A DNA stretch of 20,000 bases from an uncultured virus (IMG/VR IMGVR_UViG_3300048442_000810). Lineage: Duplodnaviria > Heunggongvirae > Uroviricota > Caudoviricetes. A program made the position numbers and the translations under genes. The DNA is taken from IMG/VR virus record IMGVR_UViG_3300048442_000810; one strand, 5' to 3'. This document shows positions 167-18,516 of the stretch, one piece after another. Each line of letters starts with the position of its first letter. Within the stretch, counting starts at the first letter, position 1. The notes below the pieces were generated by a model that worked only from the letters and a program-made list of their open reading frames with translations, had not been told where the DNA came from and made no database searches.

Positions 167-622
167 TTATGCGTTTCTAAATGGTGGTTTTTGAGATAGT
201 ATTTGTCCTATTTGACTAACTGTACCTTTATTTAAATCACCTATTTTTGTTCTTAAATCTCCATATCCTTTTTCTTCAAACTTCTGTGCAACCTGACTTA
301 ATGCTACACCATCAGGAAGTGACCTCATAACTCCAATAATTTCATTTTTATCATCGCTAAAAATACCAAATGCATCACCTAGCTTTCTTGCTTTTTGTAA
401 AGCTAGACCGGGTGTAAGCAAAATATGTCCTCCATTGCTATAAGATGTATAATAAGTTGGACTAAACCATTCATTATAATTACTAATATTGGCTCCTTCT
501 CCCCCAATAGCAGAATATATTTCAGTAAATAATTTTTTTCTTCTAATTGAAGTGACAACTAAATACACAATACCTAATCCGGCAACTGATGCTCCTAATG
601 TTATTTTTTGCTTTCTAGTCAT
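167..622 (-). CDS. N-terminally anchored membrane protein with an annexin-repeat-like domain
   Basis: TM at about aa 7-26. KARKLGDAFGIFSDDKNEIIGVMRSL...LSQVAQKFEEKGYGDLRTKI resembles one annexin repeat. Start overlaps the upstream stop (TAATG). Confidence 0.6.
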   Translation of the reverse strand: MTRKQKITLGASVAGLGIVYLVVTSIRRKKLFTEIYSAIGGEGANISNYNEWFSPTYYTSYSNGGHILLTPGLALQKARKLGDAFGIFSDDKNEIIGVMRSLPDGVALSQVAQKFEEKGYGDLRTKIGDLNKGTVSQIGQILSQKPPFRNA

Positions 623-1065
623 TATTGTCCTATTGCTTTTTGACCTCCGCCTATTTGTCCTGCTTCTGACATTCCTCTTGTTCCTATTGCTGCACCAAGT
701 CTTTTTGCTCCTTCAGGAGTTTTAACAATATTATAAATCATTAAACCTGCTCCTCCCACAATAATTAATACAATTATCTTAGAGATAGTAGAACCAAAAT
801 TTATAGAGTTTCCAATAAAATCAAATACTCCTTTTCCTGTATCGGTCAATCTGTCTAAAACATCTCTATCTAATTGAACACCTTGTTCTTCCATATACTC
901 TCGTAATTCAACGGAATCCCCCGGCATTTCTTTATCAAAATTCATCATCCAAAGTTGATTGGCTTGTGATTTTCCAACACAACTTTTTAATGACTTATGC
1001 CATTCTATCCAAGTAGAGAAACTACTTTGATTAGTAGGTATTATTAAACAGGCATCTTTGCTCAT
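622..1065 (-). CDS. Putative virion membrane protein
   Basis: 147 aa. TM IIVLIIVGGAGLMIY, Trp/Cys-containing N-terminal domain, Gly-rich tail. Confidence 0.7.
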   Translation of the reverse strand: MSKDACLIIPTNQSSFSTWIEWHKSLKSCVGKSQANQLWMMNFDKEMPGDSVELREYMEEQGVQLDRDVLDRLTDTGKGVFDFIGNSINFGSTISKIIVLIIVGGAGLMIYNIVKTPEGAKRLGAAIGTRGMSEAGQIGGGQKAIGQ

Positions 1066-2069: not shown

Positions 2070-2426
2070 TTACTTTTTTAAATATTTGTTATAAGCCCAA
2101 AATCCTACTAAAAGTGCTCCTGCAATAAATACTACTTTCTTAGTTGGAAAGTTAGATACACTTGCACCTGCCGTTACTTCTGAACTTCCTAAACTTACTG
2201 AACCGCTAACGGCTGCTCCTCTTGGAAACTCTATATTTTCATCAGCATTATCTAATACCACTTGCTCTTTAGTTCTTGGTGCATCAGGAATAAATCCTTC
2301 GCCATTCATATTAATGAATTCTTCATTTTCAATGAATTTTGCTCCATACTTGTTTTTTTGCTCTCCTACCCACTCGCTGAATGGAGTATCTGAACCTGAT
2401 AATTTGTAAACTTGATTTGCAGTCAT
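2070..2426 (-). CDS. Tail-anchored virion membrane protein
   Basis: C-terminal TM VVFIAGALLVGFWAY ending LKK. Carries the motif FINMNG. Confidence 0.75.
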   Translation of the reverse strand: MTANQVYKLSGSDTPFSEWVGEQKNKYGAKFIENEEFINMNGEGFIPDAPRTKEQVVLDNADENIEFPRGAAVSGSVSLGSSEVTAGASVSNFPTKKVVFIAGALLVGFWAYNKYLKK

Positions 2427-2466: not shown

Positions 2467-3060
2467 TTATTTTTTTAAGACAAGAACTAAAAGCATAATT
2501 CCTACTAATGCTCCTGCACCTATCATTAAATTCTTTTTTTCTTTATCGGCTTTTGCAGTTTCACGATTTATTAAAGCCTGTGCTTCATTAAATGTTCTTT
2601 CAGTTGCTGCTGCCGAGTCCTTGCCCAATTGTGTTAATTGCTCTCTTATAGCATCTAGTTCTTTGTTTTTTTCTGCTACATCTGCAATACCTGCATCAAT
2701 AGAAGATTCTACTGTAGTATTTACCTGACAATCTCTAGCATCCATAAAACTAACTACTTTACCTTTGTGGAATGTAGCTGCCTTTCTTTTTCTCTTAGGA
2801 ACTCTACTATTACCTGTATTAGAGTTATAGATGTTTTGAAAGAAATCTTTACACTCTTGTAAGTCTACACAACTATCTCCTGCTGCGTAATCACAATCAG
2901 CTTTTTGACTTGCCAATTCGGCATTATATCTGTCACTTTCGGCTCCTTTAGGGTTAGTTATATCTTTAAACCAAGACCCTCCAATAAAGCCGGGATGATT
3001 TAAGAATTCACCATCTGTAAGAGATGATACATTTTGATTTGAATCACTATCTAAAAACAT
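2467..3060 (-). CDS. Tail-anchored Cys-containing helical protein, paralog of 3064..3894
   Basis: MFLDSD start, FLNHPG motif, FMDARDC, coiled coil, C-terminal TM followed by KK. Confidence 0.75.
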   Translation of the reverse strand: MFLDSDSNQNVSSLTDGEFLNHPGFIGGSWFKDITNPKGAESDRYNAELASQKADCDYAAGDSCVDLQECKDFFQNIYNSNTGNSRVPKRKRKAATFHKGKVVSFMDARDCQVNTTVESSIDAGIADVAEKNKELDAIREQLTQLGKDSAAATERTFNEAQALINRETAKADKEKKNLMIGAGALVGIMLLVLVLKK

Positions 3061-4512: not shown

Positions 4513-5202
4513 TTATCTTTTCATTACTTTATAAATACCATATCCAACTGCTCCAAGAACTAAAAATCCAAGCATTAAGTTTGTAGGACTATTTAGACCT
4601 CCTGTTGCTGCTGCGGATTGTGTAAATAATTGTTGTTGATTAGCCAAATTGACTTGTTGTGCTTGTTGTTCTGCAATACAAGCTGATTCCATAGCATCTT
4701 TTATACTTGGTCTACGAATACCTCTTGTTTTTCTTGCTCTTGCATTAACTCTTCTAGAACCTCTACTTCCTCCATCTTTATTGGCTTCTAATCTATCTAC
4801 ATCTCCATCTAATCTTTCTAAACTTGATGTAAGAACCGCACAGTTTCCTGTATTAGGATATTCTGCATTTACTTTAGCTTGTTCTTTAGCTTCTCGTTCT
4901 CTTTCAGCTTTCTTTTTACTCCAAGTTATGCCTAAAAATCCGGGATGGTTACTCCATACATCACTATCAGGCATTGAATTATTATCATCATCAGTTAAGA
5001 CCATATTTGGTCTATTTCCAATATGATGGTCTAATGTGATTGATTCTTCTCCTGATGCATTAAAAGCAGTACCAACTATCTGAGATACTCTTACTGCTTC
5101 TTCTTTTGTTACATTTCCTGCTTGATTTGACCAAACTGTGTTGCCCCAAGGCATATCATTTGGTACATCTGAAGCATCCATATTTAAAAAGTTATTGTCC
5201 AT
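4513..5202 (-). CDS. Tail-anchored protein with four copies of the shared motif and a Cys-flanked helical domain
   Basis: FLNMDA, WSNQAG, AFNASG, WSNHPG, then an Arg-rich segment between two Cys and a C-terminal TM. Confidence 0.75.
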   Translation of the reverse strand: MDNNFLNMDASDVPNDMPWGNTVWSNQAGNVTKEEAVRVSQIVGTAFNASGEESITLDHHIGNRPNMVLTDDDNNSMPDSDVWSNHPGFLGITWSKKKAEREREAKEQAKVNAEYPNTGNCAVLTSSLERLDGDVDRLEANKDGGSRGSRRVNARARKTRGIRRPSIKDAMESACIAEQQAQQVNLANQQQLFTQSAAATGGLNSPTNLMLGFLVLGAVGYGIYKVMKR

Positions 5203-5364: not shown

Positions 5365-5754
5365 TTACTTAGCAGCCGTACCGCCTTTTCTAATTGCATA
5401 CCCAATTACAAATGCAGTTAAACCAATTCCTAAATATCCCATAACTAATTTGCCTACAGTCATTTTCATAACTCCTTTATTTTGTGACTCACCTGAAGCA
5501 TTTTGGAATACTCCACCATCTTGCCACATAGTTTCACGATTTCTTCCTGATTGTTGCCAATTAGTACCCGTAAAACTTCTAAAGTTTTGTCTTTGCCCTC
5601 TTGGACCATATCTTAATGAGCCTTGTGAAGGAACTCCTCTTGTTTTTGAAACATTAGTTCTAGGTACTTCAACACAAATGCCATTTTGACATTCATAATT
5701 ACAATTTGGACCACAAGTGGGGCACGAATAGGTACTACTACAATTAATTGCCAT
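5365..5754 (-). CDS. Tail-anchored protein with an N-terminal 6-Cys minidomain
   Basis: CSSTYSCPTCGPNCNYECQNGIC, motifs FRSFTG and FQNASG, C-terminal TM. Confidence 0.75.
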   Translation of the reverse strand: MAINCSSTYSCPTCGPNCNYECQNGICVEVPRTNVSKTRGVPSQGSLRYGPRGQRQNFRSFTGTNWQQSGRNRETMWQDGGVFQNASGESQNKGVMKMTVGKLVMGYLGIGLTAFVIGYAIRKGGTAAK

Positions 5755-5765
5755 ATCTTTTTTTT

Positions 5766-6596
5766 TTATTTACTTGCTCTCAAATTAGGTGTACTATTCT
5801 GAGTGCAAAATTTATTTCTTTCAAAATTTGTTATAAACTGATTTAAAATGTCAAATCTTTCTTTATTTTGAGGTGTTGGAGTGTCCTTAAATGTTGTAAG
5901 GAAACTTTGATAAGCCTCTATTCTTGGATAACCAAGAGCCAAATAAATTAATAATCCATTCAAATCTGCTTCTGTTTCATCTTCCATATTCTCATTCAAA
6001 TAAAAATGAGAAAACTCGTGTAATAGAATTGCCATTCTCATTGGAACAGTAAACTTTTTATAGTGTGCTTTGCTTACTTGTATAATTCCTTTTGACTGAC
6101 TAATTCTTGCAGGGGTTTGTATTACCAAACCTCTTTTTGTTCTAATATCATCAAAGTAATCTATTCTAAAATTACCCTCATCTGAGATATATGTGCTTCC
6201 GTTTGGAAACTTTCCTGCACTTAATATTCCTGCGTTGTCTGAAAATTGTTGAGCAAAATTTGCAAAATCTCTTATTTTTGGATTACTCCAATCAACACAA
6301 TCCATTTTTCTTTCTAATGGTCTAGCATCTATTTTTACAACTTTAAATGATGCATCTTGACCCTTTTTCAAATTACCGTTAGCTTTATTATATACACTTA
6401 TAAGTGCTTCATAAGGAGATAAAGGCATTCTAACGAAGAATCTTTGCTTACCATCAATAGTTGCATATCTATTAGTATAATCAGTATTAGGCTTATTAAT
6501 ATCCTTAACTACTATCTGAATTTTTTGAGGACTATTTGTTACGACCTCTATCATAATAGTTAACGATTTTTGCTTTGTTTTAAATAAAATATTCAT
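5766..6596 (-). CDS. Zinc metalloprotease (HExxH, gluzincin-like); candidate virion maturation protease
   Basis: AILLHEFSH followed by ETEAD, which supplies a likely third ligand. The maturation role is inferred from its position among structural genes. Confidence 0.7.
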   Translation of the reverse strand: MNILFKTKQKSLTIMIEVVTNSPQKIQIVVKDINKPNTDYTNRYATIDGKQRFFVRMPLSPYEALISVYNKANGNLKKGQDASFKVVKIDARPLERKMDCVDWSNPKIRDFANFAQQFSDNAGILSAGKFPNGSTYISDEGNFRIDYFDDIRTKRGLVIQTPARISQSKGIIQVSKAHYKKFTVPMRMAILLHEFSHFYLNENMEDETEADLNGLLIYLALGYPRIEAYQSFLTTFKDTPTPQNKERFDILNQFITNFERNKFCTQNSTPNLRASK

Positions 6597-6718
6597 TTCT
6601 TAATTACCAAAATTATTAAACCTAATAATATGACTCCTCCTACTAACCTTAATCGAGTTACTGATATACCCTTTATTTGCATATCCATTTCTTCTCTTTC
6701 TAAAGGTTGTAGTGCCAC
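6593..6718 (-). CDS. 41-aa single-TM microprotein (not in ORF track)
   Basis: GTG start. MALQPLEREEMDMQIKGISVTRLRLVGGVILLGLIILVIKK. The stop overlaps the protease start (ATGA). Confidence 0.75.
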   Translation of the reverse strand: MALQPLEREEMDMQIKGISVTRLRLVGGVILLGLIILVIKK

Positions 6719-6724
6719 TTATCA

Positions 6725-7033
6725 TTACTTTTTAAAATTTATAATACTCTCCTTTGCTATGTAACCTCCGGCTAATCCTCCGGCTAAAACTCCCATCCAT
6801 ACACTTTTCTTTCTCCATAATGATAGAATAGCCCCTAATACACTTCCTAATACTGCTCCTTTCAACATCTCTTTAGTGCTATCTTTAACTAAAGCTGCCT
6901 TTCCATCATCTACAATCGTACTGATACTTTCTTGTGTTTCAGTTGGCATTGTCATTCTGTTTGTGACATTATTTTGTCCATCAAAAGAAATTTCCTGAGC
7001 CTCATCAAAAAGATTTACTTCGCTATCAAACAT
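6725..7033 (-). CDS. Membrane protein with a glycine-zipper two-helix C-terminus
   Basis: GAVLGSVLGAIL and GVLAGGLAGGYIA. Acidic N-terminus containing ISFDG. Confidence 0.75.
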   Translation of the reverse strand: MFDSEVNLFDEAQEISFDGQNNVTNRMTMPTETQESISTIVDDGKAALVKDSTKEMLKGAVLGSVLGAILSLWRKKSVWMGVLAGGLAGGYIAKESIINFKK

Positions 7034-7044
7034 ATTTCAAAGAA

Positions 7045-7743
7045 CTAATTTTGTACTGCCGGTGATGAACTTCCTTTTCTGCTATTATATAAAGCAAAAC
7101 CTATAACTGCTAAAACCCCAACACCTAATAAAATAAATACAACTTTGCTAGAGCCTCCTAAACCTGCTTGAGTTGGCGGTAATACAGTTTGATTTGCACC
7201 TAATTCCATTTGCTGCAACATCAAATCTCTATTCATTCCTGCAAGTTCCAATTCGTGAGCCCTTTGCTTTCCTGCTTCTTTATAACTTTTATTTCCTTGC
7301 CAAATACCTGCAACTGTAGATAAGACTTGAATTCCTCCGTTTAACCATTGTCCGCCTGTTACTCCTGCACCTGTACTTGCTGATGGAGCAGGAACTCCTC
7401 CTACTTGATTCATAAATCCATCTCTACTAGCATCCGTGTCCATTGGACTAATTTCTTCTGCACCTTCAATAAATGGCAATTGATTAGCTAAAACTAATTT
7501 CATAATTCCAATCCTTACACATTCACTTGTTAAATTGTATGCTACTGCCGTAACTAATTCAACTTTTCCTGCTCGTGAAGAAACTTTCACACCACAGTTA
7601 ATAAGTGTTTTTCGTACTAAAGCCGGTCTACCCTCTATCACTTTAGCAACTTCGGATAACATTAACTCTCTCGTTATAGCCATATCTTTTGTTTTATTTA
7701 TTGCTTTAAAATTTTCTTTAAAATTATGATGCTCATATCTCAT
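7045..7743 (-). CDS. Tail-anchored virion protein
   Basis: Helical N-terminal domain, FMNQVG motif, amphipathic Gly-rich segment, TM VVFILLGVGVLAVIGFALY. Confidence 0.75.
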   Translation of the reverse strand: MRYEHHNFKENFKAINKTKDMAITRELMLSEVAKVIEGRPALVRKTLINCGVKVSSRAGKVELVTAVAYNLTSECVRIGIMKLVLANQLPFIEGAEEISPMDTDASRDGFMNQVGGVPAPSASTGAGVTGGQWLNGGIQVLSTVAGIWQGNKSYKEAGKQRAHELELAGMNRDLMLQQMELGANQTVLPPTQAGLGGSSKVVFILLGVGVLAVIGFALYNSRKGSSSPAVQN

Positions 7744-7744
7744 A

Positions 7745-8254
7745 CTACTTTTTTGCTATTATATATCCTACCGCAAAACCAACTGCTAATAAAAGAATTG
7801 GAGATGTTTGCATTTCTTTCATTTTTCTATCTCTTGCTCTCCTATCTCTTTTTAGCTTTTCTCTAAGTATTTCTTTTTTTACTTCTTTTATTTCACTTAC
7901 TACCTCTTTTGCATCAAAATTAGAACTTGATGTATTAGGCTCAAATGAAGATGGAGCCTCCGGTTTAAATGGGGTTGGCTCTACAACTTCAGGTTCAGCA
8001 AATCCCGGTGTTCTACCTGTTGCATAAGCGAAATCTTTATCTGAACCAAATGATTTAGTGAAAGACTCTAATAAAGACTTATCAGGATGAATTTCACTAA
8101 TATCTTGTAAGGCAACTTTTTTGTATTTTCTTACAATTATTTTTAATCTGCTAATTAATTCACTTATACTGTTGGTAGCTTGAAAACCATAATTACTTAA
8201 AAGTTCATTAGCCCCTGAAGAATTATTATGTGCTATGTATGTGTATAAATTCAT
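7745..8254 (-). CDS. Tail-anchored virion protein
   Basis: Helical N-terminal domain ending HPDK, FAYATG motif, basic stretch, C-terminal TM followed by KK. Confidence 0.75.
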   Translation of the reverse strand: MNLYTYIAHNNSSGANELLSNYGFQATNSISELISRLKIIVRKYKKVALQDISEIHPDKSLLESFTKSFGSDKDFAYATGRTPGFAEPEVVEPTPFKPEAPSSFEPNTSSSNFDAKEVVSEIKEVKKEILREKLKRDRRARDRKMKEMQTSPILLLAVGFAVGYIIAKK

Positions 8255-8292
8255 TTTTATCTTTTTTGTATATTTTTAATTTATCTTTTAGT

Positions 8293-8345
8293 AAAAAAAA
8301 ATGGGGCTCGAAGAAAATGCCTTTGCATCTACCTCTGCCCCATTT
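8293..8345 (-). terminator. Intrinsic terminator downstream of the candidate capsid gene
   Basis: Minus strand AAATGGGGC...(inner ATGC-AAAG-GCAT)...GCCCCATTTTTTTTT: a GC stem followed by a run of nine T. Confidence 0.8.
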
Positions 8346-8378
8346 AATATCTAATCTCTAAGAATTAATAACTTAATA

Positions 8379-9128
8379 TTAACCCTGTAATGCACGAGCA
8401 ACTCCTTGACCAAGAACAATCTTGTCTTGTCTTACAACATTTGGATTACCATAACCACGAGCAATTGAATTGCCTGTTAGAGCACGACCTTGAGAAACAG
8501 TTTCAGATGGGAACAAGTAGACTTTTAAAGTCGCTTTTGCTGCAATACTGTTAACTGTTAATGTAGTAAAGCCATCCCACTTATAGGTATGCTTTAATAC
8601 AGTAATGTCTGTTTGGTTTTGGTAAGGGTCAATTGTAGGAACAAGAGTTTTTTGTTGTTGATTACCATTAGAGTCAACTACTTTTACTACGATAGTTTCT
8701 AGGACCTGTGTTGAGCCTCCATCACTTTGTAGGTAAGTTAATCCAACCACGAATGGTTTAGATGAACTTTGCCATAAAAATTCAAGATAAGTTACACCTG
8801 AAATAGCCATATTATATAGGATATTTGCCGTGTTACCTGCTTCACCTGCCGGAATACCTCCACCTGCTGCGATTGCGGTTACCTTAGTTATCGTGTTATA
8901 TGCTCCACCAATTTCAACAGATGCTACATCTGCTGCCGTAGAGTTATATAATGAGATAATGTAAGGTTGTGATGAACTAGCATCAGCCGAACCCATTGCG
9001 TTTAAGTATTCTTCTTCAGAACCACCAAAGTCAAAAGCATCATCCCAATCATTTACACCATTAGCTGACATAAATTCGTTTGAAATGTTTTCTTCTGCAT
9101 CAGAGAAATAACGGTTTAAATTTTCCAT
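8379..9128 (-). CDS. Candidate major capsid protein (jelly-roll-like beta sandwich with an acidic N-terminal extension)
   Basis: Soluble, with many short beta-type segments (PYIISLYN, FVVGLTYLQS, IVVKVVD, TTLTVN, LKVYLFP). Heads the structural block, has a long leader and its own terminator. The fold is inferred. Confidence 0.6.
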   Translation of the reverse strand: MENLNRYFSDAEENISNEFMSANGVNDWDDAFDFGGSEEEYLNAMGSADASSSQPYIISLYNSTAADVASVEIGGAYNTITKVTAIAAGGGIPAGEAGNTANILYNMAISGVTYLEFLWQSSSKPFVVGLTYLQSDGGSTQVLETIVVKVVDSNGNQQQKTLVPTIDPYQNQTDITVLKHTYKWDGFTTLTVNSIAAKATLKVYLFPSETVSQGRALTGNSIARGYGNPNVVRQDKIVLGQGVARALQG

Positions 9129-9160
9129 TTTTTCTTTAATTTTATTTGGTTAAACAATTA

Positions 9161-9330
9161 TAATTCATAAACTTTTTATGAACTAAACAACATAAACTCC
9201 CCTTAACGGGTCACTCTTTTTACAAAACTTAATAATTATCTTGTTATCAATTATCAACCTTTAGGAGCCGTGGGCTCAACTAAAAGGACCATATCAAACT
9301 GACTGCCCTTGGGACTTACCATCAATAATT
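9161..9330 (-). ncRNA. Candidate structured RNA leader of the capsid gene
   Basis: Outer helix AAUUAUUGAU/GUUGAUAAUU encloses the hairpin CCUUUUAG-UU-GAGCC-CAC-GGCUC-CUAAAGG. A second hairpin is UAGUUCAUAAA/UUUAUGAAUUA. G-U pairs favour the minus strand. Confidence 0.45.
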
Positions 9331-9331
9331 A

Positions 9332-9460
9332 CTATGCTTCACCATCTTTGTCTAGGAAATTCTTTTCAACCACATTTGCTCCAATGATACCTATCATTAC
9401 ACCAACTGCGACTCCAAGAATACCCATCAACATAGACTTTTTTCCTTTTCCTTCAATCAT
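9332..9460 (-). CDS. 42-aa single-TM microprotein (not in ORF track)
   Basis: MIEGKGKKSMLMGILGVAVGVMIGIIGANVVEKNFLDKDGEA. GxxxG zipper, ends TAG TAA. Confidence 0.8.
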   Translation of the reverse strand: MIEGKGKKSMLMGILGVAVGVMIGIIGANVVEKNFLDKDGEA

Positions 9461-9514
9461 CTTACTAAAGATTTTAAATTAAACTTAGGCACAAGCCATT
9501 GTTAAATACAAAAA

Positions 9515-9522
9515 CAAATTTA
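9515..9522 (-). promoter_or_regulatory. Bacteroidota-type -7 promoter element for the structural operon
   Basis: TAAATTTG matches TAnnTTTG, is intergenic and lies 54 nt upstream of ATG 9460. No clear -33 element. Confidence 0.5.
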
Positions 9523-9646
9523 TAAACATATATAGGTTTATTAGCTTGTTGTTATGTAAATAAGTGTAACCGGTTTGGTTGAAGTTATTTTAGAAAATAC
9601 TATTTAACCCTGAAAATTTGATAAAAAAGTTGAAATTAAGTTGAAA

Positions 9647-9883
9647 TTAAAATGATTTTTTAACTTCATTGACTATTACACCATTCATAATAGAAAATAT
9701 TCCTACTATTAATGCTAACTTAACTAACTCTTTAGAATCCGGTAATTTGAAGTTATTTGGATTTGTCACTTCGCCTTCTAATTCTTTTGTATGATTTTTA
9801 CCCATATTAAAATGGATAATTGCTTCAGTCATAAATAGAACAAAAGTTGTGCCTCCAACAATAAGACCTAGATTCTTTTTCAT
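9647..9883 (-). CDS. Small two-TM membrane protein
   Basis: 78 aa with hydrophobic segments at both ends. A holin role is possible but has no further support. Confidence 0.7.
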   Translation of the reverse strand: MKKNLGLIVGGTTFVLFMTEAIIHFNMGKNHTKELEGEVTNPNNFKLPDSKELVKLALIVGIFSIMNGVIVNEVKKSF

Positions 9884-9887
9884 TGGA

Positions 9888-9895
9888 CAAAGATA
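9888..9895 (-). promoter_or_regulatory. Bacteroidota-type -7 element, probably leaderless transcript
   Basis: TATCTTTG-TCCA-ATG: the box sits 4 nt before the start codon. Confidence 0.6.
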
Positions 9896-9917
9896 TATAA
9901 AAATATATTATAAAAAA

Positions 9918-11390
9918 TTAATTCAATATTTTTTCAATTTCCATTCCTGTTAAAACATACTTAATATCAGGATTTATAGCAATATGATATTCTTTATAAA
10001 GCCCCATAGCTATTGCCATAGAAACGGAAGGATTGCAATAAAACTTACTACATTTTTTTATCATCCAAGCCATATCATATAAGTCTTTGACTTTATCACC
10101 ATAAAAAATTAAATTATCTTTTACATCATATTCTTTTAAAAGGGCTTCATATTCATCTTTTAAACCAATAAAATAGTTTTTACCTTTTTGTTCTTTTATG
10201 CATTTTTCCCAATTAAAATCTACACCATCTCTGTACCTCTGTGTTATATGGAAAACATTAAATTTTCCTTTTGGAATTTCTACATTATTATTTAATTCAG
10301 GAGTATTAAATTTAAAATCATCCTTTAATAATAAATAAGGAAATGGGGTGTCTTGAGGATTTTCTTTCCAAACTCTAAAATATGAAAACACTACTTGTTC
10401 TTCAAAAAGTTTTGGCGAAAGCCTAAAATAATCTAAATCATAATCTAACTCTACTGAATTATCATATTTTACTTTAACACCTGTGTCGATTTCAGATGTT
10501 GAACCTTTTTTGTATGTTTTTTCTCCAAAACCATCTTTATATAAATTTACATTATTTATATAAGGTTGACATTTAAGCAGCCTGTATAAAGATTGATATT
10601 GCTTATTGGTGGCAGAAAATTTATGTTTATTTTTTAAATAAATATCTCCTCCTCCTTTTTTAATAATTAATGGCAATGAAAATATTACATCTCCTAAACT
10701 TCCGCTATGTAAAAAACTTTGAACTCTTTTTTTAGAAAAATTTTCTACCCCTACTTCTTCTATAAATTCTTCTGTGCTCTTTATATTCATCCACTCTTCT
10801 CTGTTTTTTGAGAAATTATCCCAATCAAGAGTTATTTTACCTTTGATAGCCGGTTTTTTCTTTTGGGCAAATGTAATCATACCAACCCCTGTATCTGTAT
10901 CAATTACTGACATTTCTACATCTGTTCTTTCATTTCTAACTCGAACAAATGCTTTCCAAACATCTCCATTCCAATAACTTGTTACTGCCGGTACTTTTTG
11001 ATGGTCCTCTTCTAAAGGCAAACAATCGTGCATTAAAATTGTACCCCCTTTATTTAAACAATCTATAGAATTATTTATATCTCTATATACTTGCTCATTT
11101 AGGTGTAATCCATCAATAAATATAATATCATATTTGTGATTGTGATTTTTAAAATATTCATCTGATGTCATTCTAAAATCTACATCTATTTCTGATGGTT
11201 TCCATTTTTTATCAGATGTACTTTTAGCAACAGAAAATTCCGCTAAAAATCCTTCATCTAAAGGGTCACATCCTTTTTTATCATCTATTATAATTTGATT
11301 GAAACATTCTTTATCCCTTACCCCTATTTCGAGATATGTTTTGTAATTGTTTTTTTTAATCAATGCGTTTATAATGTCAAATCTTTTCAT
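9918..11390 (-). CDS. Fusion of a class I SAM methyltransferase (Methyltransf_24-like) and a GT-B/GT9-like glycosyltransferase
   Basis: N-terminal half: YLEIGV, YDIIFIDGLH, GGTILMHD. C-terminal half: HSGSLGDVIFSLP and DLYDMAWMIKKCSKFYCNPS, resembling heptosyltransferase-family motifs. Confidence 0.75.
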   Translation of the reverse strand: MKRFDIINALIKKNNYKTYLEIGVRDKECFNQIIIDDKKGCDPLDEGFLAEFSVAKSTSDKKWKPSEIDVDFRMTSDEYFKNHNHKYDIIFIDGLHLNEQVYRDINNSIDCLNKGGTILMHDCLPLEEDHQKVPAVTSYWNGDVWKAFVRVRNERTDVEMSVIDTDTGVGMITFAQKKKPAIKGKITLDWDNFSKNREEWMNIKSTEEFIEEVGVENFSKKRVQSFLHSGSLGDVIFSLPLIIKKGGGDIYLKNKHKFSATNKQYQSLYRLLKCQPYINNVNLYKDGFGEKTYKKGSTSEIDTGVKVKYDNSVELDYDLDYFRLSPKLFEEQVVFSYFRVWKENPQDTPFPYLLLKDDFKFNTPELNNNVEIPKGKFNVFHITQRYRDGVDFNWEKCIKEQKGKNYFIGLKDEYEALLKEYDVKDNLIFYGDKVKDLYDMAWMIKKCSKFYCNPSVSMAIAMGLYKEYHIAINPDIKYVLTGMEIEKILN

Positions 11391-11410
11391 TTATTTATTT
11401 TTTAAAATAT

Positions 11411-12229
11411 TTATGTTAGGAAATATTGCTGCCTTATTCTAGCCCTTACTTGTCTAATAGCTTCATCTCTATCAATTTTAGAGCCATCACTTAAACTTTT
11501 TTTATTAATAGCAGGTTTTACTACGGAATTAAAATTTTTAGATAAGTATTCATCTATTCCATTATTTATAATTGCTTCAGACATTTTTCCTTTTAATTTT
11601 TCTTCATCTAAATCTACATACATAAAATATCTAGGATTATCATTAAAATACTGTGTGTTTACTATATTTTCAGCTATACTAAACATTTCGTATTTATCAG
11701 GAAATTTATTTCTATGTCTTTCAATACTATCTGAGTTTTTATGAAACCTCAACCAATTAGCATTTTGCCATACTTTAGTTGTTATTCTTCCAATACTCTG
11801 AAAATGCATAATAATATCTAAGTCTGTGTGTCTGTTGGAGCAAATAGCACCTACAATATCTGTTGGAAGATGGTCACCTACATACTTATTAATGTCCTCA
11901 ATCAATAACATACCCCCTCTAAAATAGTGTAGTATATCCCATAATTGATTTGCTATTTCTTTTAAAGTAAGTCTTATTCCTGTTTGCTCATTAAAAGGTC
12001 TTACCCTTCTTATTTCTGCGGTAGGCATAACAGAAAATCTTACTAAATCTTTCATAGATATAGCTTTATAATCTACAAACTCATCATTAACATCTAAAAT
12101 TAATACTCTACGAGGAAGAACCCCTTTTGATGGATTTCCATAAACATAGGATTCAATAAGTATTTTAGTTTGATAAGTTTTACCAATCCCTTTTTTTCCT
12201 ACTGCCATTCCTAGCTTTGGTTCTCTCAT
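11411..12229 (-). CDS. FtsK-HerA superfamily genome-packaging ATPase (A32/PRD1 P9-like)
   Basis: Walker A GKKGIGKT at the N-terminus, VLILD strand, Walker B MLLIED, Arg-finger NRH, then IIMHFQ. 272 aa with no TM or nuclease domain. Confidence 0.75.
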   Translation of the reverse strand: MREPKLGMAVGKKGIGKTYQTKILIESYVYGNPSKGVLPRRVLILDVNDEFVDYKAISMKDLVRFSVMPTAEIRRVRPFNEQTGIRLTLKEIANQLWDILHYFRGGMLLIEDINKYVGDHLPTDIVGAICSNRHTDLDIIMHFQSIGRITTKVWQNANWLRFHKNSDSIERHRNKFPDKYEMFSIAENIVNTQYFNDNPRYFMYVDLDEEKLKGKMSEAIINNGIDEYLSKNFNSVVKPAINKKSLSDGSKIDRDEAIRQVRARIRQQYFLT

Positions 12230-12230
12230 T

Positions 12231-12857
12231 CTATAATTTTTTAAATGTAGCAGTTAATATATTTGGTGTGTAATTTTTATCAATTCTAACTTTATCTTCT
12301 ATGTTAGTATAATTAATAATTTCAAAACCCATTCTTTTCATAAATTTTTCTAATGATTTTTCATCAAAGTGATACAAATGTTCATCAGGCTTTCTATGTT
12401 TCCAATTATTAAACCATTCATCATCTGATGCCCCCCAACACCAAGGAAGAGATATAACTGCGTATTTACACTTTAAATCTTTTACAAACTCAATATCATT
12501 AAAATGCTCTAAACTGTCAAAAAATGTAATCACATCCACCTCAACAGAGGTTATATCTTTTACAAATTTTATATTATCTTTTAAAGGATATGCAGGTTCT
12601 ACATCATTTCCATAAAGAACATCTATTGAGTTTTTACACGCATCTAAAAAATCTCCATTGCCATATCCAACATCCATTAACGATTTTGGAATATGACCTA
12701 TTGAGCCAATAATATATCCTAATCTTAGGTTAAGTATATTTCCCCTGTCATTAAATACTGAATACCTGCTATCTGAATATTCTTTAGAATATATATACGG
12801 TTTGCAATTTATTTGCTTAACTACTCCATCTATATTTTTTTTATAGTTAGCTAACAT
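12231..12857 (-). CDS. Class I SAM-dependent methyltransferase (Methyltransf_23-like)
   Basis: LMDVGYGNGDFL, DVITFFDSLEH, EHLYHF. No DNA-MTase DPPY or PCQ motif. Confidence 0.85.
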   Translation of the reverse strand: MLANYKKNIDGVVKQINCKPYIYSKEYSDSRYSVFNDRGNILNLRLGYIIGSIGHIPKSLMDVGYGNGDFLDACKNSIDVLYGNDVEPAYPLKDNIKFVKDITSVEVDVITFFDSLEHFNDIEFVKDLKCKYAVISLPWCWGASDDEWFNNWKHRKPDEHLYHFDEKSLEKFMKRMGFEIINYTNIEDKVRIDKNYTPNILTATFKKL

Positions 12858-15433: not shown

Positions 15434-15871
15434 TTATTTATTATTTTCAACGAATATCTTAATATCGTTGTTTATTTTAATTAATTTATTATTTTGTTTT
15501 TTTTCTTCAGGAAATTTCGGATTCAAATTTTCCATATAACGCATATCTCTGCTTACAGTCGCTTTATTTAATTTAAGATTTTGAGATATTTGAGATTGTG
15601 ACCAATGTAGATGTTCTCTGATTAGTAATACTAACATTGCTCGTGCTTTTGTTCTAACACCAAACTTCCTGCTTTTGCCTAGAAACAGTTCACTCTCTGA
15701 TATGTTGAAATTTTTGCAAGTTGTTTTGATAATATAAGCTAAAAGATAATCTTGATTTTCATATCCTTCTTTTAGTCCTTTATCTATAATTTTTTTTGCC
15801 TTTTCGATTCCTTTCTCATCAACGAGTTTCATTAATTTTTTAATGAGTTCAAAAGAATTGGTGTGTTTCAC
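15434..15871 (-). CDS. HTH protein with a DnaA C-terminal (domain IV)-like fold
   Basis: IIKTTCKNFNISESELFLGKSRK...ARAMLVLLIREHLHWSQSQISQNLKLNKATV. No AAA+ domain. GTG start. Confidence 0.7.
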   Translation of the reverse strand: MKHTNSFELIKKLMKLVDEKGIEKAKKIIDKGLKEGYENQDYLLAYIIKTTCKNFNISESELFLGKSRKFGVRTKARAMLVLLIREHLHWSQSQISQNLKLNKATVSRDMRYMENLNPKFPEEKKQNNKLIKINNDIKIFVENNK

Positions 15872-17103: not shown

Positions 17104-18072
17104 TTATTTAGGACCAAACGGAGGCATACCTCCTTCAGGTGCTTTAGGAAGCCCTCCAAATACCTCATTTTCATTTACTGTTTTAGGTGGAGCAAATCTA
17201 TTAGGATTTTGTCCTTGATTGCCTTGAGGACTGTTTTGTACTGCATTAGAGATTCCATAATTTTGTTGTGAATCAAAATAATTTTCTGTCCCCGGATTAT
17301 TATTTACATAATTCTTTATTGGGCTTTTGCTATCTCCTATACTTTCTGCAATTTTACTTGCATTAAAATATTTATTTTTAAAGTTGTCATCGTTAATAAT
17401 ACCCTGAGCCAATTGCTTACCAAAAACTTCATCAGAAGGAAAATGAACTCCTAAAATTATTCTTGATTTAGAGCATTTATCAGCAAATTTAGTTAGCATA
17501 TCTTGTTGGTCGGGATAACGAAAAGATAATATCTCTGCAAATACCCTGCTTTGTACTGTATGACCTGAAGGGTATGAAGGTGACTGAGCAGATACCGTAG
17601 GCATTGGGTTCAAAGGAAACTTATAAATATTTGCAAGTTGATAAGGTCTTATTCTATTATAATAAAATTTTAACTTCATTATAATTGGATTTATATCTTT
17701 ATATAATTCTTTTACAAAACCTTCAGGATTTGAAACTCCGCATTTATATGCAGTATCAAGAAACATTCCTTCTAAATCTTCATCAAATTTGATACTTAAC
17801 TCCACAACTTTATCGTGTTGGAGTTTTTCCATATCTTTTTGTATATCCTTTAACTCTTTAGCGGCATAAGTACCATCATTATTTGGATAGGGTTTATCCA
17901 TAAAATAATTTGCTATGTAATCAAAATCTCCTTCTTTTCTAATAAGTATATCTTGTGCTGCATTAGGATTTCCATATGTTAGATTATTAACAGGAATTAG
18001 CCCATACTTAGTTTCAGGTGTAGAAGTATTAATTGTTTGCTGAGTTCTTTTTCTTGTTCTTGTTCTAGCCAT
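17104..18072 (-). CDS. PAP2 / acid phosphatase / vanadium haloperoxidase superfamily protein, soluble
   Basis: All three motifs present: KFYYNRIRP, PSYPSGH, SRIILGVHFPSD. N/Q/P-rich tail. Confidence 0.88.
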   Translation of the reverse strand: MARTRTRKRTQQTINTSTPETKYGLIPVNNLTYGNPNAAQDILIRKEGDFDYIANYFMDKPYPNNDGTYAAKELKDIQKDMEKLQHDKVVELSIKFDEDLEGMFLDTAYKCGVSNPEGFVKELYKDINPIIMKLKFYYNRIRPYQLANIYKFPLNPMPTVSAQSPSYPSGHTVQSRVFAEILSFRYPDQQDMLTKFADKCSKSRIILGVHFPSDEVFGKQLAQGIINDDNFKNKYFNASKIAESIGDSKSPIKNYVNNNPGTENYFDSQQNYGISNAVQNSPQGNQGQNPNRFAPPKTVNENEVFGGLPKAPEGGMPPFGPK

Positions 18073-18081
18073 AATTATATA

Positions 18082-18516
18082 TTAAAAAAAGTAATCAAAA
18101 AGTGAATTTCCCTCTTGCTTAGGTTTAGACTCAGGCTCTTCTTTCAATTTTTCTTCTTCTAATCTTTTAGCTTCTGCCTGTTCTGTTCGCTTTAAATCCT
18201 CTTCTTCTTGAATTCTTTTTAGTTCTAAGGCTTCTTGTTGTAGTCTTTCTTCTTCTTTCTTTCTAGCTACGGCTTCTTGCCTTGTGGTATTCATATCTTC
18301 ATAAATCTGAACACAAACTGATTTTGATAATCTTATTAATTTTTGTGTGTCAGATTCTGATACTTCAAAATCTTTGCCTTTTTTTTCTGCTCTTGATTGC
18401 TTTAAAGAAACTCCTCTATGAAAATGATTAAAATCTTTTAAATAATTTTGTGCTTCTCTTGTCAGATTTTCTTTTTGAAGTTTCTGCTCTTCCATTAAAA
18501 CTTGGTGTGGGTACAT
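18082..18516 (-). CDS. Hypothetical charged coiled-coil protein
   Basis: E/K/Q-rich helix ending SLFDYFF. Confidence 0.7.
   Translation of the reverse strand: MYPHQVLMEEQKLQKENLTREAQNYLKDFNHFHRGVSLKQSRAEKKGKDFEVSESDTQKLIRLSKSVCVQIYEDMNTTRQEAVARKKEEERLQQEALELKRIQEEEDLKRTEQAEAKRLEEEKLKEEPESKPKQEGNSLFDYFF

Follow-up and report, generated by a model that had tools for sequence, protein, structure and literature searches.

We describe here a gene at positions 8379–9128 (minus strand) of a 20-kb window from an uncultured virus (IMG/VR IMGVR_UViG_3300048442_000810), the window being the closing 20 kb of a linear record that measures 71,399 bases and has no end repeats. The 249-residue product of this open reading frame (ORF) is probably a major capsid protein (MCP), and we consider it likely that it forms the main, single-jelly-roll (SJR) shell of large bacterial viruses that are probably tailless and membrane-lined and whose family seems not to have been described. 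The major role is suggested because the gene is present as one leader-bearing copy per genome, is highly conserved, carries the strongest codon bias in eight of ten genomes and has a packaging-type ATPase gene upstream.

The protein is built as a preliminary description of the window had proposed, with an acidic leader of 53 residues (13 D/E against a single K/R) carrying two copies of a short motif, a core of 155 residues (54–208) and a 41-residue tail with five K/R and two D/E, which is likely an arm touching neighbouring subunits or the interior. Searches with the protein against Pfam, PHROGs, PDB sequences and the cultured phages of INPHARED gave no match, and a search of the ESM Atlas was uninformative (top score 0.78). 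Its uncultured homologues form 870 clusters when grouped at 90% identity, and 379 representatives remain at 50%. The core spans 140–179 residues in all 150 aligned homologues, and the leaders have a median net charge of −8 (n = 149), being acidic in most but not all cases (neutral or basic in 14).

A structural model built from 150 sequences (predicted local distance difference test (pLDDT) 82.9, predicted template modelling score (pTM) 0.73) folds residues ~53–211 into a single β-rich domain. Its structural neighbours are jelly rolls, double-jelly-roll capsid proteins aligning through one barrel only, and all matches are weak: Foldseek returned no PDB match at an E value of 0.001, and each of the 26 BFVD matches at that threshold had a query TM score below 0.3. 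None of the SH1, P23-77 or SPV1 capsid chains was among the 50 matches listed, which does not exclude a likeness to them. The model and its neighbours nevertheless bear out the single jelly roll proposed earlier, and the one predicted domain, with the narrow range of core lengths, agrees with the remark that the core is too short for a double one. As for the findings that had been named as counter-evidence, the predicted fold is a jelly roll and no true double-jelly-roll MCP was found among the 102 ORFs scanned on the contig, so that the claims on fold and size hold at the level of prediction.

A scan of IMG/VR with the single protein gave no match, and a rescan with a tighter alignment recovered 74 loci, with a complete ORF in 72. 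We examined ten genomes in full, namely the present one and nine chosen relatives (five with inverted terminal repeats, plus G001, G002, G003 and G018), in which the capsid family falls into three types, A, B and C. Type A, the leader-bearing protein described above, is present in exactly one copy in each of the ten. Its mean identity of 52.5% is exceeded, within the set of 11 families common to all ten genomes, by the ATPase alone (55.1%). On an index of C-ending F/Y/N/I codons, chosen from prior knowledge of translational selection, type A ranks first in eight genomes and second and fourth in the other two, against ranks of 6th to 78th for its paralogues.

The FtsK/HerA-type ATPase gene lies upstream of the capsid gene in all 65 loci with at least 5 kb of flanking sequence. 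Its product aligns with the packaging ATPase of P23-77 (hhalign probability 86%, E = 5e-6, 144 columns) and with that of SH1 at Walker A only, and a HerA Pfam match was obtained in 7 of the 10 genomes. The sphaerolipovirus connection drawn in the preliminary description stands for the ATPase, whereas a corresponding likeness of the capsid protein was not found in comparisons with single sequences.

Features of the capsid gene and associated genes in the window
Feature	Position	Strand	Remarks
Likely major capsid protein gene, 249 residues (P0001)	8379..9128	-	
Conserved N-terminal helix, residues 1–18	9075..9128	-	Model helix 4–16
Leader motif copy 1, residues 19–24	9057..9074	-	F/Y at 19 78%, G24 91%
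Acidic and aromatic spacer, residues 25–40, predicted disordered	9009..9056	-	
Leader motif copy 2, residues 41–46	8991..9008	-	A44 88%, G46 85%
Predicted single jelly-roll core, residues 53–211	8496..8972	-	
Basic conserved tail, residues 212–249	8379..8495	-	R215 71%, L217 88%, P229 98%
Terminator-like hairpin and U run directly 3′ of the capsid gene	8299..8345	-	−26 kcal/mol, z −6.2
42-residue hydrophobic ORF upstream of the capsid gene	9332..9460	-	On the same RNA-run contigs
FtsK/HerA-type ATPase, likely genome packaging	11411..12229	-	hhalign to P23-77 ATPase
HExxH...ExxAD zinc-peptidase-like protein, candidate maturation protease	5766..6596	-	Conserved motif
Core membrane-anchored protein adjoining the capsid gene	7745..8254	-	10/10 genomes
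Core membrane-anchored protein, motif between domain and anchor	2070..2426	-	10/10 genomes

The leader motif recurs well beyond the capsid protein. The pattern [FWYL]xN[AQHM]xG, chosen by eye after the sequences had been seen, occurs 19 times in the ORFs of the contig against 2.1 ± 1.4 in 500 shuffles (maximum 8), and a similar pattern occurs 121 times in 149 homologous leaders against 10.9 in shuffled ones; in relaxed form, at least one copy is found in 66 of 71 leaders. The Asn of the second copy is variable (48%), and the region of the first (residues 19–27) is modelled with pLDDT below 50. In the membrane protein adjoining the capsid gene, the motif lies between soluble domain and anchor, by eye clearly so in the nine relatives and in degenerate form in the present copy. 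Four paralogous membrane proteins are alike from the residue after the motif Asn and differ before it, where their leaders, 8 to 85 residues long, are unrelated. A His-Pro-Gly-Phe segment directly follows the motif in four membrane proteins (window 2467–3060 and 4513–5202; contig 37728–38225 and 46508–47266). A hydrophobic C-terminal segment is present in 35 of 117 ORFs of this virus.

A candidate for the enzyme acting on the motif is the zinc-peptidase-like protein, which gave no match in Pfam or PDB searches. Its HExxH...ExxAD motif is intact in 10/10 genomes and in all 65 copies at the loci, and its gene lies downstream of the capsid gene in 57 of 58 loci. Putative cutting of the leader by this peptidase, which on the sequences we put at even odds, is plausible because the peptidase is conserved nearby, the motifs fall in segments modelled with low confidence and the likeness among membrane proteins starts after the motif Asn. 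Assembly might then proceed in a set order, to which as a whole we give equal weight for and against. The conserved helix and acidic spacer would first hold the subunits on a layer of membrane proteins; the peptidase would next cut within the motif, probably before its small or hydrophobic fourth residue, releasing parts of the leader and bringing to maturity the membrane proteins with the same tag; and the ATPase would last fill the particle with DNA. Comparable arrangements are known in T4 (gp21), phiKZ/SPN3US and adenovirus, where a single short motif marks many structural proteins, leaders are acidic and a conserved protease is encoded among the structural genes. Those proteases are serine or cysteine enzymes; the present candidate is a zinc peptidase, with a different motif and a putative cut.

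Several observations weigh against cutting. The stricter pattern is missing from 54 of the 149 leaders, a truncation test was negative in that no homologue credibly begins at the proposed cut among 373 sites, and the first helix of the leader is conserved (Y7, F8 and A11 in 90%, 80% and 69% of aligned residues). Furthermore, a second motif, aromatic-x-x-G-G, is enriched in 10/10 genomes and may be the target of the peptidase. The last three of these points, together with a motif-like W-F-N-D at the extreme C terminus of two proteins of this virus, where a cut would take off one residue, would suit an MCP that retains its leader, the motif serving for docking, so that capsid and membrane proteins bind one common pocket, while the conserved helix faces touch the membrane, as the N-terminal helices of PRD1-type capsid proteins do. 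We regard this as a serious but less probable alternative, against which stand the unrelated leaders that precede a common sequence beginning right after the motif Asn, and the fact that motif and peptidase are both core features. The aromatic-x-x-G-G motif also joins long modular proteins (G000 contig 28699–31174 and 38451–41758), one of which carries ArdA.

The capsid gene is not alone in its family. A profile of its homologues, run against 587 six-frame segments of the contig (G000), detected two further members, both outside the window: a leaderless protein of 154 residues (contig 472–936, plus strand; L001:472-936; E = 5.8e-39) and a 453-residue protein with an inserted domain (contig 25960–27321; E = 1.5e-15). 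The earlier statement that there is only one candidate is correct within the 20-kb window and fails for the 71,399-base contig; similarly, the proposed single-MCP architecture holds in that there is one major gene, with the qualification that the genome carries paralogues. Among 48 of the 74 loci, picked for their longer contigs, every record has at least one capsid-family match and 40 have at least two, as do 12 of the 15 records with a completeness of 90% or more; six matches fall in one record of 102 kb. Five of the surveyed records bear inverted terminal repeats (67.8–84.4 kb).

Type B, present in nine of the ten genomes, forms a separate group in the tree (nine rows, support 93/98, not starred). 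In the present virus it is a single gene, that of the 453-residue protein, modelled (pLDDT 83.3) as the same barrel with an insert of ~145 residues after strand C. In eight of the nine relatives, type B is a protein of 146–211 residues lacking the first two strands, and the adjoining gene, encoding 113 to 1,241 residues, has a B-C-like segment at its start and variable domains at its end; seven of these split forms were assigned by clustering and that of G018 by eye. The segment has weak profile support (E = 0.007–0.011, probability 4–5%), yet it falls exactly on the missing strands, and the type B barrel appears to be split over two genes in these eight relatives. Because type B combines the same barrel with an insert of that size, or with a partner gene ending in variable domains, we rate a vertex protein as a reasonably good bet for it.

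Type C consists of leaderless copies in three of the ten genomes, nested among type A in the tree with some long branches, and includes a 397-residue protein, probably a tandem of two barrels, for which 41 full-length relatives are among the 120 matches listed. In this tandem protein (P0143, L003:10001-11194; G001 contig 17225–18418), basic helices precede each barrel. The leaderless 154-residue paralogue may serve in decoration or as a decoy during assembly; the G001 copy of this type sits among glycosyltransferase-type genes. Other variants include a 320-residue paralogue that contains an insertion and a motif-like segment and has a membrane anchor at its C terminus (L136:9657-10619, minus strand), and a 137-residue protein (G000 contig 34661–35074, minus strand) whose start resembles the capsid leader and first strand and continues into an unrelated domain (phrog_36695).

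The paralogues have the look of vertex and accessory components, more than of an additional major coat protein. Pairing of the MCP with the inserted or split paralogue in turreted hetero-capsomers, as in Helvetiavirae, would accord with the P23-77-like ATPase, the presence of type B in nine genomes and an echo of VP16/VP17 in a small barrel beside one with an inserted domain. We find it improbable, however, as the codon bias of type B is ordinary (ranks 15–71), its gene lies more than 10 kb from that of type A in the ten genomes rather than adjacent, and the extensions of the partner gene are variable, up to 1,241 residues, as expected at vertices. For a shell made by type A, we lean slightly towards homo-hexamers.

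Three further observations count against type A as the major capsid protein: the ATPase of this virus weakly matches a family labelled terminase large subunit, fibre and lysozyme proteins match tail-labelled families, and the Atlas clusters of the capsid family are labelled Uroviricota. In PHROGs, major head (HK97), portal and double-jelly-roll families had no match among the 102 ORFs of this contig, nor among the ORFs scanned in two records bounded by inverted terminal repeats (91 of 116 in G007, 89 of 119 in G034), although profile scans can overlook divergent genes. Alternatively, the protein may be a minor if abundant jelly roll serving as decoration, cement or inner scaffold in a phage, tailed or otherwise different, whose true capsid gene escaped detection; this is improbable to a like degree, given these two repeat-bounded records, the lack of any head, portal or tail-tube profile match among the 11 universal families and the rank of the capsid-type gene as the most codon-optimized.

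As to expression, contigs from two RNA studies span 8334–9491 and 8337–9484, covering the capsid gene and the 42-residue ORF, and their ends, with the hairpin that a simple scan overlooked, give a weak hint of a short transcript over the capsid gene. The long 5′ region (window 9129–9491, minus strand) has moderate structure (z −2.4), and 201 bases of it are skipped in the contigs of two RNA runs. In four studies, the depth of RNA-run contigs was 39–306 over the capsid gene against at most 21 for the listed neighbours, a measure that cannot rank genes and was not used as evidence. A sigma-70 promoter scan was at chance level (7 against 6.8 expected), and an Rfam search around the capsid gene gave no match.

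A bacterial host is indicated by the endolysins. The sequences upstream of genes are rich in A, and Shine-Dalgarno-like words were seen for 6 of 68 genes, a combination typical of Bacteroidota, and two of six genome-bin loci are from Bacteroidota, the others being mixed; a host in this phylum is accordingly our favoured assignment, held with fair confidence. The sequencing runs that best hold the virus are marine. A 132-kb contig in a Sediminibacterium bin looks viral at both ends by eye and lends no support to integration as a provirus. The PAP2-family phosphatase and DnaA-C-like helix-turn-helix genes (window 17104–18072 and 15434–15871, minus strand) are present in 10/10 genomes, and a lipid-related role of the former would fit a membrane virion. 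Elsewhere on the G000 contig are genes for a 2,361-residue protein of collagen-like Gly-x-y repeats that probably forms a long fibre (5553–12638, plus strand), and an Fe/Mn superoxide dismutase (32072–32743, minus strand).

[quoted passage not shown] Singelaviria/Helvetiavirae (P23-77 VP16/VP17; SH1 VP7/VP4) resemble the present virus in single-barrel capsid proteins, an FtsK/HerA-type ATPase and many membrane proteins. They differ in that their two MCPs form hetero-capsomers (PMC8812541, PMC5332951, as available) and, in P23-77 and SH1, are encoded by adjacent genes, the genomes being 17 and 31 kb in size, whereas here there is one major gene in 68–102 kb, and the tagged leader and peptidase set the virus further apart. 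The capsid profile reached E = 0.07 or worse against single P23-77 and SH1 capsid sequences, a weak test; a D-x-x-G-N hairpin common to P23-77 VP16 and SH1 VP7 (E = 0.1–0.5) was dismissed as a common turn. The virus would resemble helvetiaviruses in its working, and membership of Singelaviria is not supported by the capsid sequence.

SPV1 (Sulfolobus polyhedral virus 1, a member of the Portogloboviridae; VP4), which carries one SJR-MCP gene (PMC8812541, in part), lacks a packaging ATPase and has an archaeal host, in contrast to the ATPase invariably upstream here, which sets the virus apart from Portogloboviridae. On the available text of PMC6260650, PMC6356626 and PMC5332951, the nearest cultured analogue is SSIP-1, a bacterial, membrane-containing virus with T = 49 and a genome of 44 kb, entered in PMC6260650 as 'single jelly roll?' and given two MCP types in one review (PMC6356626) and, reportedly, one in its original description. 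Of its 57 ORFs, 29 were compared with the capsid and peptidase profiles and none matched either; gp40, which is ATPase-like, agrees with the present ATPase at Walker A only. Neither SPV1 nor SSIP-1 had been cited as a precedent in the preliminary description. Bamfordvirae and Abadenavirae (PRD1, PM2, STIV, FLiP) are unlike this virus, which has one predicted barrel and no match to their families in the 102 ORFs of a partial contig; as for Caudoviricetes, HK97 capsid and portal were not matched in three records, against one weak terminase-labelled match on the ATPase. The double-jelly-roll elements of 7–17 kb of Yutin 2018 (PMC5894146) are, from the text available, a different group, and a haloarchaeal preprint (10.1101/2025.02.15.638363) and PMC10848233, likewise in part, concern two-MCP viruses. 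Our literature searches, with subscription journals and bioRxiv supplements outside their reach, found no description of this family.

In the current scheme, SJR viruses have either one MCP without an ATPase (SPV1) or two MCPs with one (Helvetiavirae), and double-jelly-roll viruses of prokaryotes are said, in the available text of PMC8812541, to stay below 20 kb. A widespread family with one major SJR gene, an ATPase and genomes of 68–102 kb would fill a gap in this scheme or be an independent origin. Its database clusters are labelled as tailed phages, and tailless phages may therefore be undercounted, while the tandem form offers a natural test of whether a double barrel can arise by fusion of two single ones. 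More tentatively, the family could be a bacterial virus lineage of its own at high rank, with linear genomes of 70–100 kb, a membrane-lined shell of one SJR protein with a packaging ATPase, maturation by a zinc protease, a vertex barrel completed from two gene products by strand complementation, allowing spikes to be swapped, and a tandem two-barrel protein derived from its own capsid gene. If true, its pairing of one SJR protein with a packaging ATPase would be the state so far lacking between SPV1 and the helvetiaviruses with their two MCPs.
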